In this document: positions 9,262-36,240 of the stretch, one piece after another
Layout of the letters: each line of letters begins with the position of its first letter
Numbering within the stretch: position 1 is the first letter of the stretch
Virus record (IMG/VR): IMGVR_UViG_2675903609_000006
Source: a virus
Lineage: Duplodnaviria > Heunggongvirae > Uroviricota > Caudoviricetes
Direction: 5' to 3' (one strand)
Length of the DNA stretch: 43,172 bases
The notes under the pieces: generated by a model
Database searches by the model: none
The model's input: only the letters and a program-made list of their open reading frames with translations
Told to the model about the DNA's origin: nothing
Position numbers and translations under genes: made by a program

Positions 9262-10373
9262 CAGAACGGGTCCTCCTGTACTCTGGCTTTTTTCTTTTTC
9301 CGCGCGCCGGGGGCTTCGGGTTCAGGCAGATAAGCATCAGGCGGGCCGACACGGATTTCCGTCAGGGTGCCGTTCTGGTCCTGAGTAAACGTGACTTCCG
9401 AAACAAGCAGTTCGGTATTGTCGAAACCACAGACCGGATCAAAGACAATCACCCGCTGGTTGGGCTGCCACAGCGTACCGTTACCCTGTCGCCAGCCCTG
9501 CACCACATAGGTGGTTTCATCCGTCCGCGCCGCCCGTTGCCGGGCTTCAAAGTCAGCACGCGCAATACAGCCTGCCCCCGTAGCCTGCCCTGTCTGCCTG
9601 ATATACATCGGACGGTAACGGGCAATAAATGCGTCCTCTGTGCGGGCCCGCAGCGCGGTGGTGGTGGCCTCACCGAAATCATCGTCGTTTCCGGCACGCT
9701 GCCCCGCCACCTGGTAAACAGAAAATCGCTCCCGGATACTCTTCTCCGTATCGCAGGAAAGGATGTTTTCCCCGAGTACCAGCGCAGTATGTGCCCGCGT
9801 TGAGCCAATACCGCCAATCACCAGCCTGCCGTGCGGGTCGTCGTAAGCCAGTGCCTGCTGCTGACCGAGTATTTTGTTGATTACCTCAATCACCGTTTCA
9901 CCGTGATCAGGCTGAACATCAGGAATAACACCCGACGGCGCACCGCTGTTCACCACCTCAATGCCGAAAGGCGCAGCAAGCGCCTGCGCAATCTGTACCA
10001 GCGATCGTCCGTTAAACTGTGTCGGTTCGGCTGCACAGTCAATCAGGTCAGCGGTCAGACTGCGTCCGGCAATACCGGTGCTGACCGAACGGGCATCGTA
10101 ACGAACGGGCGTCGCCTCCACCCAGCCGGTGATCACCAGCTCATCACCAATCAGCACCTCCACTTTTGAACCGTTTTTAANNNNNNNNNNNNNNNNNNNN
10201 NNNNNNNNNNNNNNNNNNNNNNNNNNNNNNNNNNNNNNNNNNNNNNNNNNNNNNNNNNNNNNNNNNNNNNNNNNNNNNNNNNNNNNNNNNNNNNNNNNNN
10301 NNNNNNNNNNNNNNNNNNNNNNNNNNNNNNNNNNNNNNNCGCACCGATGTCCAGCCATTCCACTCCCGGCCAT
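9261..10373 (-). CDS. Baseplate hub (phage late control D / Mu P-like); 5' part interrupted by an N-run
   Basis: Position between the spike and DNA-circularisation genes; N-run 10181-10339 lies inside, so the start is uncertain. Confidence 0.55.
   Translation of the reverse strand: MAGSGMAGHRCXXXXXXXXXXXXXXXXXXXXXXXXXXXXXXXXXXXXXXXXXXXXXXXXXXXXXXKNGSKVEVLIGDELVITGWVEATPVRYDARSVSTGIAGRSLTADLIDCAAEPTQFNGRSLVQIAQALAAPFGIEVVNSGAPSGVIPDVQPDHGETVIEVINKILGQQQALAYDDPHGRLVIGGIGSTRAHTALVLGENILSCDTEKSIRERFSVYQVAGQRAGNDDDFGEATTTALRARTEDAFIARYRPMYIRQTGQATGAGCIARADFEARQRAARTDETTYVVQGWRQGNGTLWQPNQRVIVFDPVCGFDNTELLVSEVTFTQDQNGTLTEIRVGPPDAYLPEPEAPGARKKKKARVQEDPF
10181..10339. other. Run of N (159 nt) - gap or masked sequence
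   Basis: Literal n characters. Confidence 1.
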
Positions 10374-31627: not shown

Positions 31628-32121
31628 TACGCCCCCACGTAATTCCCTGACAGATACCACTCATCACTCGATACAGCGCGCTTGCTGCTTTTCCGTAAAC
31701 ACTGCTCACGACGCGCCAGAAAATTGTTTCGTTCTGGCTGGGAGTGGCTTTCACGGAATGCCGCCATCCACACCGTTGCAGCACGACGGTATAAGCCCCT
31801 GGACTCCAGTTCTTCAGCCTGGCGGGTCAGGCACAAAATCTCCCGCGGGTCGTTAGTGCCGACATAGAAATTGCGCACAGGTCTGGTTTCACGAACTGGT
31901 TGCGGTTCCGCCTCCTGCGCTCTCTCAGTCAGGCGCGGGAAATGTCTGCGTGTATCCCCTTCACAACGGTGAGCCACACGCCCACTCTGACGTAACTTGC
32001 TTGCTGACTGCAGAACGCGCTGCCGTGAGTAACCTGCAAAAGCATCCGCAATGTCTCCGGAAGTACACCCCGGATGGGCTTCAATGTATTTCTGAACTTC
32101 ATTCAAAAGACTCATGATCAC
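31627..32121 (-). CDS. PerC-like regulator (putative)
   Basis: C-terminal motif LESRGLYRRAATVWMAAF resembles the recalled PerC-family signature. Confidence 0.4.
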   Translation of the reverse strand: MIMSLLNEVQKYIEAHPGCTSGDIADAFAGYSRQRVLQSASKLRQSGRVAHRCEGDTRRHFPRLTERAQEAEPQPVRETRPVRNFYVGTNDPREILCLTRQAEELESRGLYRRAATVWMAAFRESHSQPERNNFLARREQCLRKSSKRAVSSDEWYLSGNYVGA

Positions 32122-33059
32122 CCCCTGAATCCTGCCGGGATCTGGCTGTAGTCCACGTTGTCGTAACTGGCTTTGAAGTACGGGTCTTCGCGTTTTTCTG
32201 TGTACGTGCTGACGGACGGCGATAAGCGCAGGGAAAGCTCATCCCATTTTTCCCGCAGCTTCGACGGGCTGAGCACGTTACGGCACCAGAACGGATCGCG
32301 GCTGACGCGGCTGTACATCTCGCAGATTTGTTTGTGAGTACGACCATCCTGCACACACATCAGGCGAATTTCGTTTGCCCAGGCTGTCCAGTTCGGTTCT
32401 TTGGGACGAACCACCTCGCCGTCACATTCGGCGGCCTGCTCGTACAGGGCGATGATTTTTTTCCAGAGCCACTGTGCGCAGGTCAAATCATCCTGCGTTC
32501 CCCACTGGCGCTTTTTAGGGCTGAATACAACCGCATCAGGATGGCGAGTTAAAAACTCCTGTTCAGCCGTCTGCGTGTCCGGTTGCGAAGCGTCCGGACG
32601 AGAAGTTTTTTTATCTGACGGATCATGTTTTGATTTTACTGACGGATCCCCGCCAGATTCTGACGGGTGAAAACCCGCTTTTTTGCCAGATTTCGACGCA
32701 TCAAATTTTGACGGGTCAGATTTTGATGCGTCAGATTTTGACGGGTCAGAATCTGACAGTTGAGAAAATGCCGCTGCCTGAAGCTTCGCAACGTTAAGCT
32801 GATAAACATTCGACGCATTGCGGTTACCCTGGCGACGCGCCTTACGCGTTAACCAGCCTTCTGCTTCCAGCCGTGCGATAGCCGTTCTGACGGTACTCAT
32901 CCCCGCGCCAATCTGACGGGCAATGGTTTCAATTGATGGCCAGCACACACCTTCGTCATTACTGAAATCAGCCAGGCGGGCCATAATTGCCACGCTGGAT
33001 AATTTCATGCCTGACGCTGCGCAACCATCCCATACATAGCCGGTTAATTTAGTGCTCAT
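32118..33059 (-). CDS. Replication initiator (O-like) with internal origin iterons
   Basis: N-terminal HTH, a central repetitive linker (SDSDPSKSDASKSDPSKFDASKSG) encoded by the iteron array, and a C-terminal domain. Confidence 0.6.
   Translation of the reverse strand: MSTKLTGYVWDGCAASGMKLSSVAIMARLADFSNDEGVCWPSIETIARQIGAGMSTVRTAIARLEAEGWLTRKARRQGNRNASNVYQLNVAKLQAAAFSQLSDSDPSKSDASKSDPSKFDASKSGKKAGFHPSESGGDPSVKSKHDPSDKKTSRPDASQPDTQTAEQEFLTRHPDAVVFSPKKRQWGTQDDLTCAQWLWKKIIALYEQAAECDGEVVRPKEPNWTAWANEIRLMCVQDGRTHKQICEMYSRVSRDPFWCRNVLSPSKLREKWDELSLRLSPSVSTYTEKREDPYFKASYDNVDYSQIPAGFRG
32611..32762. repeat. Iteron array (about eight ~15-bp direct repeats, consensus AGATTTTGACGGGTC) - candidate replication origin
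   Basis: Four contiguous 15-bp units at 32703-32762 plus degenerate copies upstream, all inside the initiator gene. Confidence 0.6.
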
Positions 33060-33407
33060 GACCGACCTCTATTTCCCTGAATTTACGACGAAACTGTTCG
33101 AGCGGGCTGAAGCACTCATGCTCATAGCCTTCACGGAGGTAGATAACCCGTTGTGTTTCCGGCTCCCAACGAATGACTCTGACGGGCACTCCGTAGTGAT
33201 CTTTGAACCAGCGATTAACTTGTCGCAAAGGACTGTCTCCTTCTGCCGGTTGAAATCCCCCACAGCCCACTCTGCAAAGCTGTGGGTTACAATTTCCCTG
33301 TCACCTGGTACATTCACTGCATAGCAATACTCCACCTTCGCTTTTCCACCCGGTACAGGAAGCGCAATCAGTTGCGAGCGACGGTAGTGTGTTGTTAAAC
33401 TGTTCAT
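33049..33407 (-). CDS. Hypothetical protein, reading frame ambiguous
   Basis: Two overlapping ORFs (33069-33407 and 33049-33270) in different frames each look plausible; the longer fits the gene array positionally. Confidence 0.3.
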
Positions 33408-33967
33408 GCGTTAGTTTCTCCACAGTCACGACACGCCACGGCGCCCGGAGCTGCACACTCGCGGGCGTCATTACTTTCTGAAATGCAAAAAATTTTGTAG
33501 ACCAGTGCTGCATGCTCCTGCAGCTTCGAAATTGAGAGGTACAGCTCGTCGTTAATTGCTGTCTTCTCATGCGGTTCCACTACACCGTCTTCGATTGCTG
33601 AACGAATCTGTTTTGAATAACTGCCGATCTGTTCAATGACTTCCAGCAGACGCTGGTTAATATCGGCGTTGTCCACATCCTCGACGTCAGGAAGAGACAC
33701 AAAGACGCCATTTGCAGACTGCGCCACAGCGTCAGCAATGAAGTGAGTTCCACCAGCACGTTGCAAAATCATTGCCCATCCCAGCGGGAAAATCTGATCG
33801 CCATCGGCACGAAGGCGGTTAAATAATGCGTTCTCTGTTACATCCAGCCAGTCAGCTGCTTCAGCGTAACCACCCGGCAACTTTGCGATAGTTTTTCTGA
33901 CAGCTTTCACGTACCACTCAGGCTGTTTTTCTACTTTCCAGTGATGCTTACCCACGGTTAGCCTCAT
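33404..33967 (-). CDS. CII-like regulatory protein (putative)
   Basis: 187 aa immediately downstream of cro; tentative family resemblance only. Confidence 0.4.
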
Positions 33968-33998
33968 CGTTCTGTGGTTAAAAATTGAAAGTGTTCTG

Positions 33999-34199
33999 CT
34001 AATCTTTCGGATAGATATCCGGTCTTAAGTCAGATTTCGTAATTGCACCTGACGTGCATTGCTCAAGTTTTTTAGCCAGCACAAAACTGGCTTTTTTATA
34101 GCCATTGAAAACCAGCCGTAAGTAGCCAGGTGTTGAGCCAACTTTTCCGGCCAACTCGCCCTGCTGTTCTTTGGTTAAAGAGTCCCAATACGCTTTCAT
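33999..34199 (-). CDS. cro: Cro-like repressor (Cro/YdaS-type HTH)
   Basis: Divergent from the repressor gene; start taken at MKAYWDS because the ORF-track start overlaps an operator. Confidence 0.7.
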   Translation of the reverse strand: MKAYWDSLTKEQQGELAGKVGSTPGYLRLVFNGYKKASFVLAKKLEQCTSGAITKSDLRPDIYPKD

Positions 34200-34204
34200 A
34201 CAAT

Positions 34205-34274
34205 ATGTACCTCCGGTGTACATATTACATGATTAAAATGAACCTTCAAGATACTTGTACCTTAACGGTACAAG
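34205..34274. promoter_or_regulatory. Divergent immunity promoter region with two palindromic operators
   Basis: ATGTAC-CTCCGGT-GTACAT (34205-34223) and CTTGTACC-TTAA-CGGTACAAG (34254-34274) between cro and the repressor gene. Confidence 0.55.
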
Positions 34275-34289
34275 GGTTTTAATTTCGTT

Positions 34290-34964
34290 ATGAAAACAAT
34301 CCATGACATCCGGCGGTCTAACGCCAGAAAACTGAGAGATGGTGTTGGCGGGAATTCTTCCTTTGCCACTATGATTGATCGCGAGCCAACCCAGACCAGC
34401 AGGTTTATGGGAGATGGTGCTACTAAAAATATCGGTGACAGCATGGCACGACACATCGAAAAATGTTTCGACCTGCCTGTTGGATGGCTCGATCAAGAAC
34501 ACCAGACAACGAACATCACAAAAAAACCTGATGTTTCAATCACTAATAAACAAATCACATTAGTCCCTGTCATATCATGGGTACAGGCCGGAGCATGGAA
34601 AGAAGTTGGATATTCTGAGGTTGATTTGAGCACAGCAGAAACGTATCCCTGCCCTGTACCCTGTGGGGAAATGACTTATATCTTGCGGGTGATAGGTGAT
34701 TCAATGATTGATGAGTACCGCCCGGGAGACATGATTTTTGTCGATCCTGAAGTACCAGCCTGCCACGGTGACGACGTTATTGCATTGATGCACGATACAG
34801 GTGAAACCACCTTCAAAAGGTTGATAGAAGATGGGACACAGCGTTATCTCAAAGCGTTAAACCCAAACTGGCCTGAGCCTTACATTAAGATCAACGGTAA
34901 TTGCTCTATAATTGGAACTGTGATTTTCTCAGGAAAACCAAGAAGATACAAAATCAAAGCCTAA
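34290..34964 (+). CDS. cI: CI-type repressor with S24 (LexA-like) autopeptidase domain
   Basis: C-terminal domain with VIGDSM nucleophile and downstream Lys (FKRL), similar to recalled P22 C2. Confidence 0.85.
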   Translation: MKTIHDIRRSNARKLRDGVGGNSSFATMIDREPTQTSRFMGDGATKNIGDSMARHIEKCFDLPVGWLDQEHQTTNITKKPDVSITNKQITLVPVISWVQAGAWKEVGYSEVDLSTAETYPCPVPCGEMTYILRVIGDSMIDEYRPGDMIFVDPEVPACHGDDVIALMHDTGETTFKRLIEDGTQRYLKALNPNWPEPYIKINGNCSIIGTVIFSGKPRRYKIKA

Positions 34965-34975
34965 TCAATGTTTAT

Positions 34976-35000
34976 GAACCTGCTTCGGCAGGTTTTTTTA
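34976..35000 (+). terminator. Rho-independent terminator after the repressor gene
   Basis: AACCTGC-TTCG-GCAGGTT hairpin followed by TTTTTTT. Confidence 0.65.
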
Positions 35001-35003
35001 TAC

Positions 35004-35031
35004 TTGACAATGTACCCATGAGATACATAAT
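35004..35031 (+). promoter_or_regulatory. Near-consensus sigma70 promoter (pL-like candidate)
   Basis: TTGACA (35004-35009), 16-nt spacer, CATAAT (35026-35031); two ATGTACCC direct repeats overlap the spacer and the start region. Confidence 0.5.
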
Positions 35032-35120
35032 GTACCCAAGAGAAACAACGAACAGGCAGGACGCCCACGAAGTAGCCGCCTGGGGCATATAAAGTCTAGG
35101 GTGATTCGTTAGCAACAAAA

Positions 35121-35153
35121 AAGCGCCCTACAGGACGCTTAGCTCTTTAACAA
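35121..35153 (+). promoter_or_regulatory. Hairpin plus boxA-like motif (candidate antitermination element)
   Basis: AAGCGCC-CTACA-GGACGCTT hairpin, then GCTCTTTAACAA (35142-35153), which matches the recalled rrn boxA. Confidence 0.4.
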
Positions 35154-35198
35154 TCTGGTCCCCATCAACAAGTAACTGATAACTTGAGGAGGTGTGAA

Positions 35199-35405
35199 AT
35201 GCACAAAACAGAACCCAAAATCGTCGCGCCCGGATACACAAATGAGGAAATTTACGAGTGGATGGCAAAGAAGCTGGCAGCTATAAACCAGCTTCGTGAA
35301 GTGCTGTCTTATCGACAGGAAACAATAGACTCCTTAAAAAAACTGGATCAGGAAATCACGGTTTTATCACAGGATGTTACTTTAGATATTGTGCAGACAA
35401 ATTAG
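35199..35405 (+). CDS. Hypothetical protein (68 aa)
   Basis: ATG preceded by GAGGAGG; helical, coiled-coil-like product; not Arg-rich. Confidence 0.4.
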   Translation: MHKTEPKIVAPGYTNEEIYEWMAKKLAAINQLREVLSYRQETIDSLKKLDQEITVLSQDVTLDIVQTN

Positions 35406-35811
35406 GATCCCATTCATTTTCGTCAAAATCATCAAAGTGATGAATTTGTGATCTCCAGTCTCGATAATCTAAAAATTTCTGGGCGGTTACGCTTATTTTA
35501 TCAAGTGTGAGTTCATCCTGAATTGAAAGAAGAAGTTCATCAAATTTCATCTCATTAATCTGTTTTGGCATCCAGTGATGCTTCATCAGAATAAGGTGAA
35601 CCAGAGCCTTTTTCCCATTCAACTGATTATAGGGAGTGCCGAATTTCTTCCGGTGCTCATGTAAGACAAGGTCCAGAAGAGTAAGTAATGTTGCCCTTGA
35701 TTCCACTTTGCTTATTTCGACTGATGACACTACCCCACTGATTTCAATGCCCCGATACTTTCCAACATTTTCACAGTGGGATTTGTACAGCGTGTAGATA
35801 TTACCGGACAT
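35377..35811 (-). CDS. Hypothetical protein (144 aa), AT-rich cargo gene
   Basis: Convergent with and overlapping the 68-aa ORF by 29 nt; markedly lower GC than flanks; no family recognised. Confidence 0.5.
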   Translation of the reverse strand: MSGNIYTLYKSHCENVGKYRGIEISGVVSSVEISKVESRATLLTLLDLVLHEHRKKFGTPYNQLNGKKALVHLILMKHHWMPKQINEMKFDELLLSIQDELTLDKISVTAQKFLDYRDWRSQIHHFDDFDENEWDPNLSAQYLK

Positions 35812-36140
35812 TTCTTTTCCTTTTGCGTTGTTGGGGATAACCAGATTAACCGAATCCTTGTTGTTGGGGAATAACCAGGTCCACCTCGCCTGATGTGGCT
35901 AAAAGCAGGCACATAACAGCTAAGTATTTTTAACCAGAGAGAATCCTTAGCGTTGTGGTGAATGCGGCTCAGCGCACGCGGGTTAAGGTTGAGGCTGACA
36001 GTCGACCTTCTGTGGATACCCACCCGTCTGGTGTGCAACCTTCGCCAGGCACCGGGAGGCACCCGGCACCACAACTTTATGCTGTGTGTAGTCCTGGAGG
36101 TACCAGTTTGTACCCTTGCTTCCGGCTGGTACCGTCCTTT

Positions 36141-36240
36141 TTACAAAACAGAGAAGAGCATCACCGGACGACGGGCTCATAACCCAATCCATCCGGGCGG
36201 CTGCCACCGCAGGTGTTCTTCTCTGTTTTGTGGAGAAACT
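36141..36240 (+). other. Long inverted repeat (~17-bp arms, ~60-nt spacer) in a non-coding gap
   Basis: ACAAAACAGAGAAGAGCA (36143-36160) pairs with TGTTCTTCTCTGTTTTGT (36223-36240), one mismatch. Confidence 0.5.

Follow-up and report, generated by a model that had tools for sequence, protein, structure and literature searches.

Described immunity regions and the locus compared with them

Phage lambda provides the paradigm for the layout of lambdoid immunity regions, and the repressor (Rep) of Salmonella phage SPC32H supplies the closest solved N-terminal domain, for the region considered here. This region lies in a Caudoviricetes sequence of 43,172 nucleotides (IMG/VR record IMGVR_UViG_2675903609_000006; the whole stretch is hereafter called the window), and the element in question is the 90-bp gap between its divergent cro and cI repressor genes. 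It is very probable that this gap is the right operator (OR) of a lambdoid immunity module of the e14/SfV/SfIV type, at which cI would bind and govern the switch as set out below. An initial annotation had proposed here an immunity switch with repressor operators, and all the computational evidence is consistent with that proposal: the flanking genes encode CI-like, Cro-like and CII-like proteins, operator half-sites stand at fixed positions, and half-sites change together with the recognition helix of the repressor.

In both lambda and the window, cI and cro diverge across a short gap that holds a tripartite OR, a cII-like gene follows cro, and a second operator cluster sits on pL. The first OR site lies on the -10 box and start of pR, the second on the pR -35 box and the third on pRM, and the cI mRNA of the window may, like that of lambda, be leaderless. 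In each, the repressor joins a helix-turn-helix domain to a domain of the S24 autopeptidase type with Ala-Gly, Ser and Lys. The lambda OR2 stands some 42-43 bp ahead of the pRM start, and lambda OR3 is the site that the repressor binds most weakly. The two systems differ in their operators, whose half-sites read TGTACC-N5-GGTACA here versus the TATCACCGC type in lambda; because these sequences are unrelated, this module and lambda are expected to be heteroimmune. The centre spacings are 33 and 17 bp here versus 24 and 23 bp, and only two left operator (OL) sites are evident, whereas lambda has OL1-3. By sequence, nothing lambda-like is detectable in the N-terminal domain of the repressor; Cro is of the YdaS kind, and CII of the CP76 family.

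The resemblance to SPC32H Rep (PDB 5D50) extends from the N-terminal domain to the operators, which have an (A/T)TACC-N5-GGTA core and comprise one separate site and two abutting sites 17 bp apart. TTACC-N5-GGTAA sites spaced 30 and 17 bp are found upstream of SPC32H rep (locus positions 581-644). The differences concern the half-site (TTACC versus GTACC here), the placement of the sites at 71-118 bp from the rep start rather than over a pRM-like position, and the C-terminal domain of Rep, which is of another type than the S24 peptidase found here. A published discussion of Kim et al. 2016 (PMC9638917) describes Rep as binding in the form of a tetramer, the two N-terminal domains on one palindrome coming from different dimers, and as being inactivated by an antirepressor, not by self-cleavage.

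Phage 933W also has a lambdoid S24-type repressor, and the record of phage mEp043, whose repressor is a relative of cI with 39% identity in the N-terminal domain, calls that protein similar to 933W cI. The 933W operators are 15 bp long and symmetric about a central base pair, and they are bound non-cooperatively by a repressor whose helix starts at S41-K42 (PMC3317979). We considered 933W as the closest characterised relative and rejected it, since both the operator length and the recognition helix differ; no direct sequence link to cI was found.

The module itself is not new. Over positions 33900-35200, identity reaches 99.9% with Shigella phage SfIV and 98% with SfV, and the same immunity region is common to Stx2c-converting phages, phage cdtI, Ayreon, 2H10 and PhiR29/49. 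In the comparison with E. coli K-12 (MG1655), cI agrees at every residue (100%) with YmfK, which is the repressor of the cryptic prophage e14, and Cro is identical to YmfT at 65 of 66 residues. The OR gap matches K-12 e14 at 89 of 90 nucleotides, the one differing base lying outside the sites, and the pL region differs at two bases of the OL1 spacer. In OR and the pL core together, each of the three differences from e14 is confined to a spacer or a gap. In SfV and Ayreon, some changes lie inside half-sites, one of them in OR1, and Ayreon also has several in OL2. The identity with YmfK, together with the near-identical Cro and operator DNA, makes this region the immunity region of e14, SfV and SfIV.

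The proteins are already named CI-like or Cro-like in SfV, SfIV and e14, and in the SfV record (GenBank U82619.2) a regulatory feature labelled 'putative operator region' corresponds to window positions 34205-34273 (69 bp), exactly the outer limits of the two palindromes seen by the initial annotation. The latter had taken these palindromes to define a candidate immunity specificity distinct from lambda and P22. They are indeed unlike the operators of lambda, P22 and 434, but the specificity is not new, given that the SfV record marks the same 69 bp. We take the SfV feature to date from 2002, with the SfV genome paper. The element is thus an annotated feature that fits the lambda paradigm, and no new kind of system. 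Beyond the annotation, the present analysis adds a 19-bp consensus, a third OR site, two OL sites, an overlay of promoters, a footprint across genera and the link to SPC32H.

Three probable operator sites between cro and cI

The gap measures exactly 90 bp, from the short-form cro ATG at 34199 (minus strand) to the cI ATG at 34290, and the sequence of 34200-34290 is acaatATGTACCtccggTGTACATattacatgattaaaATGAACCttcaaGATACTTGTACCttaacGGTACAAgggttttaatttcgttATG. Mismatches are counted against the 19-mer pattern WTGTACC-N5-GGTACAW, with which the 43-kb window was scanned, and scores in bits come from the weight matrix described below. The gap and its borders comprise the following features.

33999-34199, minus strand: cro (YmfT/CroE-like), 66 aa with the short start; Pfam YdaS_toxin/HTH_3 (weak), phrog_35 transcriptional repressor
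34205-34223: OR1, ATGTACC-TCCGG-TGTACAT, one mismatch, 22.7 bits; on the end of the pR -10 box, the pR start site and the cro Shine-Dalgarno sequence
34210-34214, minus strand: cro Shine-Dalgarno sequence GGAGG, embedded in OR1
34238-34256: OR2, ATGAACC-TTCAA-GATACTT, three mismatches, degenerate, 13.9 bits; on the pR -35 box, abutting OR3
34255-34273: OR3, TTGTACC-TTAAC-GGTACAA, no mismatch, 23.0 bits; overlapping the -35 box and spacer of the inferred pRM
34290-34964, plus strand: cI repressor (YmfK/CohE of e14), 224 aa; helix-turn-helix N-terminal domain and S24 autopeptidase

Measured from the cI ATG, OR1 lies at -85, OR2 at -52 (centre 43 bp upstream) and OR3 at -35 (centre 26 bp upstream), and the centre spacings are 33 bp between OR1 and OR2 and 17 bp between OR2 and OR3. 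The gap contains no further repeated motif. The two GTAC-core palindromes of the initial annotation are both present as placed. The first, OR1, is also legible as ATGTAC-N7-GTACAT, with arms that extend to AATATGTAC/GTACATATT; the second, OR3, has perfect 8-nt arms, CTTGTACC/GGTACAAG, over 34254-34274. Their stated separation of 11 bp was wrong, however: 31 bp lie between the 19-mers, and 50 bp between the centres. The inventory was also incomplete, as the degenerate OR2 had been missed. The remark that the first palindrome overlaps the ORF-track start of cro was correct, the ATG of that longer frame (34223) falling within the right arm. The shorter cro start is supported as well: GGAGG lies within the palindrome, all homologues begin at the methionine of MK.YWD, and the SfV, SfIV and K-12 annotations use the 66-aa form.

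At two mismatches or fewer, the 19-mer pattern has four matches in 43 kb versus 0.38 expected, a count reached by none of 100 shuffled sequences, and all four are located at two regulatory spots, which are the two early promoters. The weight matrix was built from the OR1, OR3 and OL1 sites of homologues only, the window's own sites being left out of it. It ranks the three OR sites and two OL sites on pL as the top five in the 43 kb (26.0, 23.0, 22.7, 19.2 and 13.9 bits), with the next match at 9.6 bits; in shuffled sequences, the mean maximum was 9.9 and the highest score 16.9 bits.

Palindromes may also represent hairpins in RNA or DNA, and OR3 looks terminator-like; alternatively, they could be chance palindromes on a restriction-type motif, GTAC or GGTACC. 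A terminator scan does list 34254-34274, followed by GGTTTTAATT. However, no plus-strand gene reads into OR3, and by the inferred start sites OR3 is untranscribed and only half of OR1 is transcribed. What is conserved in the arms, over five sites and many genera, is the sequence itself (TGTACC), without compensatory change, while the loop varies freely, and the clustering of the sites is far above chance. An explanation by hairpins or chance is therefore exceedingly improbable. We specifically rejected an intrinsic terminator at 34254-34274, because that strand has no upstream gene, the tail is weak and the arms show no covariation. A LexA/SOS box (CTGT-N8-ACAG) was rejected by inspection: the sites have the form TGTACC-N5-GGTACA, and the inverted repeat of the SOS box is absent.

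Conservation of the sites and covariation with the recognition helix

The footprint was drawn from 80 loci encoding relatives of the repressor. In 15 further loci, taken from genome contigs, whose cI proteins are 57-100% identical to that of the window (12 non-redundant, 13 with the window), the 19-mer recurs at fixed offsets from the cI ATG: -85, -52, -35 and about +720. This set takes in E. coli, Kluyvera, Limnobaculum, Rahnella, Edwardsiella, Erwinia, Symbiopectobacterium, Proteus and Rosenbergiella. The OR1 offset is kept in all homologues and the OR2 position in every homologue locus. Over the 13 non-redundant loci, the half-sites of OR3 hold 1.87 bits per position versus 0.37 for its five spacer positions. 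The OR1 spacer is highly conserved because the cro Shine-Dalgarno sequence lies in it (CCTCC, or GGAGG on the cro strand), and CCTCC is invariant there among the homologues. In Rosenbergiella, OR2 is a perfect palindrome of different sequence, AAGTTCC-N5-GGAACTT; such a symmetrical change argues for a dimeric binding protein over mere conservation of the promoter.

The layout extends further. Pseudomonas phage vB_Pae_CF3a, whose repressor is 59% identical in the N-terminal domain and has the helix PTQVSR, carries TGTACC-N5-GGTACA in the same three-site arrangement. Vibrio phage Va_PF430-3_p42 (58% identical in the N-terminal domain) keeps the layout with more degenerate half-sites.

The recognition helix provides the link between protein and site. 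The helix PTQ(T/V/I)SR pairs with the half-site TGTACC. In mEp043, with the helix REPSYVSRM, half-sites TTTACC-N4-GGTAAA stand at equivalent positions. Helices of the form S(Y/Q)L(S/T)QV occur in BP-4795 (SPSQLTQVS) and in some 40 loci of environmental gammaproteobacteria (NSSYLSQVR), and there the half-sites read TTTATC-N5-GCTAAA and TTAGC-N5-GCTAA. When operator half-sites are compared across homologous repressors in this way, other recognition helices go with other half-sites at the same positions, and close homologues are never paired with unrelated operators. The idea of repressor operators thus survives the comparison, and the joint variation of helix and half-site supports assigning the operators to the cI repressor.

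The palindromes could still be bound by Cro (YmfT) or by another phage or host factor, cI recognising something else. Cro homologues accompany the motif in every locus, those of the Pseudomonas and Vibrio phages among them, so that co-occurrence alone cannot separate cI from Cro. Against this reading, the half-sites track the recognition helix of cI through subfamilies in which cro is of a different family: in mEp043 and BP-4795, cro and cII are lambda-style. Moreover, the OL sites lie on pL, where a lysogenic repressor is needed, the gap holds no other repeated motif, and the sites are unlike the box of the host factor LexA. We consider it very unlikely that the palindromes serve another protein while cI recognises something else.

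Two observations apply to the repressors that share this N-terminal fold. Their operators consist of one separate site and two abutting sites 15-17 bp apart, and a -10 box lies 6-8 nt upstream of the repressor ATG, which suggests a leaderless mRNA.

The repressor, its promoters and the proposed switch

The C-terminal domain of cI is a Peptidase_S24 domain (Pfam, E 1.5e-26). In an AlphaFold model (predicted local distance difference test, pLDDT, 79), the N-terminal domain is helical, with the helix-turn-helix helices at residues 22-28 and 33-40, and the C-terminal domain is rich in beta structure. The best PDB matches are the full-length lambda repressor (3BDN) and the lambda C-terminal domain (root-mean-square deviation, rmsd, 1.5-1.7 A, 36-38% identity). 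The N-terminal domain matches SPC32H Rep (5D50) weakly but consistently, in structure (Foldseek E 7.6e-4, rmsd 1.8 A over 74 columns, 35% identity) and in sequence (phmmer E 5e-4 over residues 1-75). VQAG (residues 98-101), Ser138 and Lys176 match the cleavage site and catalytic dyad of lambda and vary little or not at all among 27 homologues; the probable cleavage site is Ala100-Gly101. Several PDB entries that are solved and apparently unpublished show weak sequence kinship to these proteins: 7NKV, 8C3K and 8C3L ('phage repressor CI') to the cI N-terminal domain (E 0.05), and 8CO2 and 8C7K ('antirepressor Cro') to Cro (E 0.01).

Two promoters can be placed in the gap.

34222-34249, minus strand: inferred pR, for cro, read from the sequence; -35 box TTGAAG (34249..34244), 16-bp spacer, -10 box TAATAT (34227..34222)
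34255-34283, plus strand: inferred pRM, for cI; weak -35 box TTGTAC (34255-34260, inside OR3), 17-bp spacer, -10 box TTTAAT (34278-34283)

The TTG of the pR -35 box and a CATAAT or TAATAT -10 box are conserved in homologues. The cI ATG has no Shine-Dalgarno sequence in the window or in any homologue, and all homologues, distant ones too, have an NNTAAT or TATACT box 6-8 nt upstream of it. With the hexamers listed, transcription from pRM would begin at about the A of the cI ATG, and the missing Shine-Dalgarno sequence and the conserved box suggest a leaderless cI mRNA, as in lambda. The centre of OR2 would then lie at -43, a geometry that allows activation of pRM from OR2.

Altogether, these findings lead to a model in which cI would bind as a dimer through its N-terminal helix-turn-helix, using recognition helix residues 33-40 (PTQTSRFM), to inverted repeats of 17-19 bp with the consensus (A/T)TGTACC-N5-GGTACA(A/T). 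In a lysogen, repressor on OR1 and OR2 and on OL1 and OL2 would shut off pR, and with it the cro, cII-like, ymfM-like and replication genes, as well as pL, while occupancy of OR3 would limit the repressor's own synthesis. Upon DNA damage, RecA-stimulated self-cleavage at Ala100-Gly101, involving Ser138 and Lys176, would release the operators. Cro (YmfT-like) would presumably then bind the same sites and shut pRM. We infer the promoter positions, the leaderless start, the cooperativity, the targets of Cro, and which protein binds which site in what order.

Several points weigh against this model. Both pR and pRM fall under the threshold of the promoter scan, which found only pL of the three promoters. 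OR2 is the weakest of the five sites and is not significant by itself (13.9 bits versus 16.9 for the best shuffle). OR3 is the best match to the consensus yet overlaps pRM, whereas the lambda OR3 is the repressor's weakest site; this makes the order of occupancy and any positive autoregulation uncertain. The centres of the abutting OR2 and OR3 are 17 bp apart, versus 23-24 bp in lambda. Finally, the searchable literature yielded no footprint, gel shift, chromatin immunoprecipitation or reporter data for the repressor or its sites. A Reg-Seq preprint has ymfT among its targets, yet its text reports only intE and icdC.

The abutting geometry bears on a different mode of action at the same operators. 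OR2 and OR3 might form one composite site for the four N-terminal domains of a repressor tetramer, in the manner of SPC32H Rep. The two sites would then be occupied jointly, and on its own gene cI would act solely as a repressor, pRM lacking activation of the OR2 type. The similarity of the two N-terminal domains given above speaks for such a mode, as do the spacings (30 and 17 bp in SPC32H, 33 and 17 bp here) and the tetrameric binding, with palindromes shared between dimers, that PMC9638917 reports for Rep. The spacings are 25 and 15 bp in mEp043, and abutting pairs 15-17 bp apart occur in both mEp043 and BP-4795. However, the C-terminal domain of cI is a lambda-type S24 peptidase, not of the Rep type, and implies no antirepressor; OL1 and OL2 are spaced by 20 bp, not 17 bp; and the SPC32H sites lie 71-118 bp from the rep start, away from a pRM-like position. 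On balance, we judge this mode unlikely for cI. The broader conjecture, that one separate and two abutting sites reflect an SPC32H-like mode with four N-terminal domains throughout the family (e14/SfV cI, the Pseudomonas and Vibrio phage relatives, mEp043, BP-4795 and SPC32H Rep), is equally doubtful. Were it true, e14-type switches would use a non-lambda logic in spite of their lambda-type self-cleaving C-terminal domain, with strong, obligatory self-repression of pRM and no state activated from OR2 alone. The SPC32H-like mode might then relate to the easy SOS induction of e14, and K-12 e14 would become a practical model of a switch design that is widespread and uncharacterised.

The probable left operator and the pL region

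The lambdoid module favoured here also has a second operator cluster, which lies downstream of cI.

34976-35002, plus strand: intrinsic terminator after cI, from the terminator scan; a terminator feature also stands in the SfV and Ayreon records
35004-35031, plus strand: pL-like promoter, TTGACA-16-CATAAT, 11 of 12 consensus matches, reading away from cI; a promoter feature stands in the phage Ayreon record
35010-35028: OL1, ATGTACC-CATGA-GATACAT, one mismatch, 26.0 bits, the best score in the window; in the pL spacer between the -35 and -10 boxes
35030-35048: OL2, ATGTACC-CAAGA-GAAACAA, two mismatches, 19.2 bits; over the end of the pL -10 box and the start site, 20 bp from OL1

The two sites appear as 19-bp direct repeats within pL, 20 bp apart and each starting AATGTACCCA, and ATGTACCCA is repeated at 35010 and 35030, just past the cI terminator (34976-34995). 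The initial annotation had noticed similar repeats after the terminator. They are there, but they do not flank the promoter as it held: the first fills the spacer between the -35 and -10 boxes, and the second covers the end of the -10 box and the start site. OL1 is found 43-75 bp past the cI stop in all Enterobacterales homologues, at the offset of about +720 from the cI ATG, and is often a perfect palindrome. Of the 12 other non-redundant homologue loci, 7 have OL2 at 20 bp past OL1, with two or three mismatches.

Downstream of pL, a leader of about 160 nt precedes a 68-aa open reading frame (ORF) at 35199-35402 (phrog_1744, unknown function). The pL unit then meets a convergent minus-strand gene of 144 aa (35377-35811, phrog_5286), whose terminator-like hairpin lies at 35140-35121. 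Compared with K-12 e14, the sequence stays near-identical through the pL core and some 60 bp past the cI stop region before it diverges; divergence from SfV begins after about 35110. There thus appears to be a recombination joint just past OL. Nut- or put-like RNA was sought with an Rfam scan covering 33900-36200, which gave nothing in the operator or pL-leader region. Farther into the early-left region, 35922-36144 (plus strand) matches the small RNA family STnc100 (RF02076) over the full model length, at 38.4 bits (E 3e-6), under the gathering score of 47, and overlaps annotated hypothetical ORFs.

Genes of the proposed pR operon

On the other side of the gap, cI diverges from a series formed by cro, a cII-like gene, a ymfM-like gene and a replication gene.

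33404-33967, minus strand: CII-like regulator (YmfL-like) that follows cro in the pR operon; Pfam Phage_CP76, E 1.3e-13; phrog_101 CII-like activator

The authors of the SfIV genome reported no homologue of N, CII or cIII (PMC3851460), unlike the present result, in which profile searches recovered the CII-like CP76 protein. The next ORF (33069-33407, minus strand, 112 aa) shares 96% identity with K-12 YmfM, by which e14 inhibits cell division and which is SOS-inducible. Because it belongs to the pR operon, this gene would be under the control of the operators described here.

The replication-protein gene (32118-33059, minus strand) contains four copies of a 15-bp tandem repeat (CAGATTTTGACGGGT) at 32687-32750. 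These repeats encode the DPSKSDASKS repeat of the protein and are candidates for origin iterons like those in lambda gene O. The window also holds 584 N characters, the first at 10181, which mark a masked or unassembled stretch.

Distribution and significance of the e14-type immunity region

Among RefSeq complete genomes of E. coli, where the genes are named ymfK and ymfT, the region is present in 1324 of 5426; the words 'LexA family' in RefSeq protein names reflect the S24 domain only. The operators described here would define the immunity specificity of a very common type of enterobacterial prophage, found in about one quarter of complete E. coli genomes and shared by e14, the serotype-converting phages SfV and SfIV, and Stx2c- and Cdt-I-converting phages. 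The abutting geometry of OR2 and OR3 is unusual and is common to SPC32H Rep. The operator consensus and the map of sites are useful for predicting superinfection immunity groups, for interpreting the SOS-linked 'YmfT' expression module of K-12, and for designing reporter and induction experiments.

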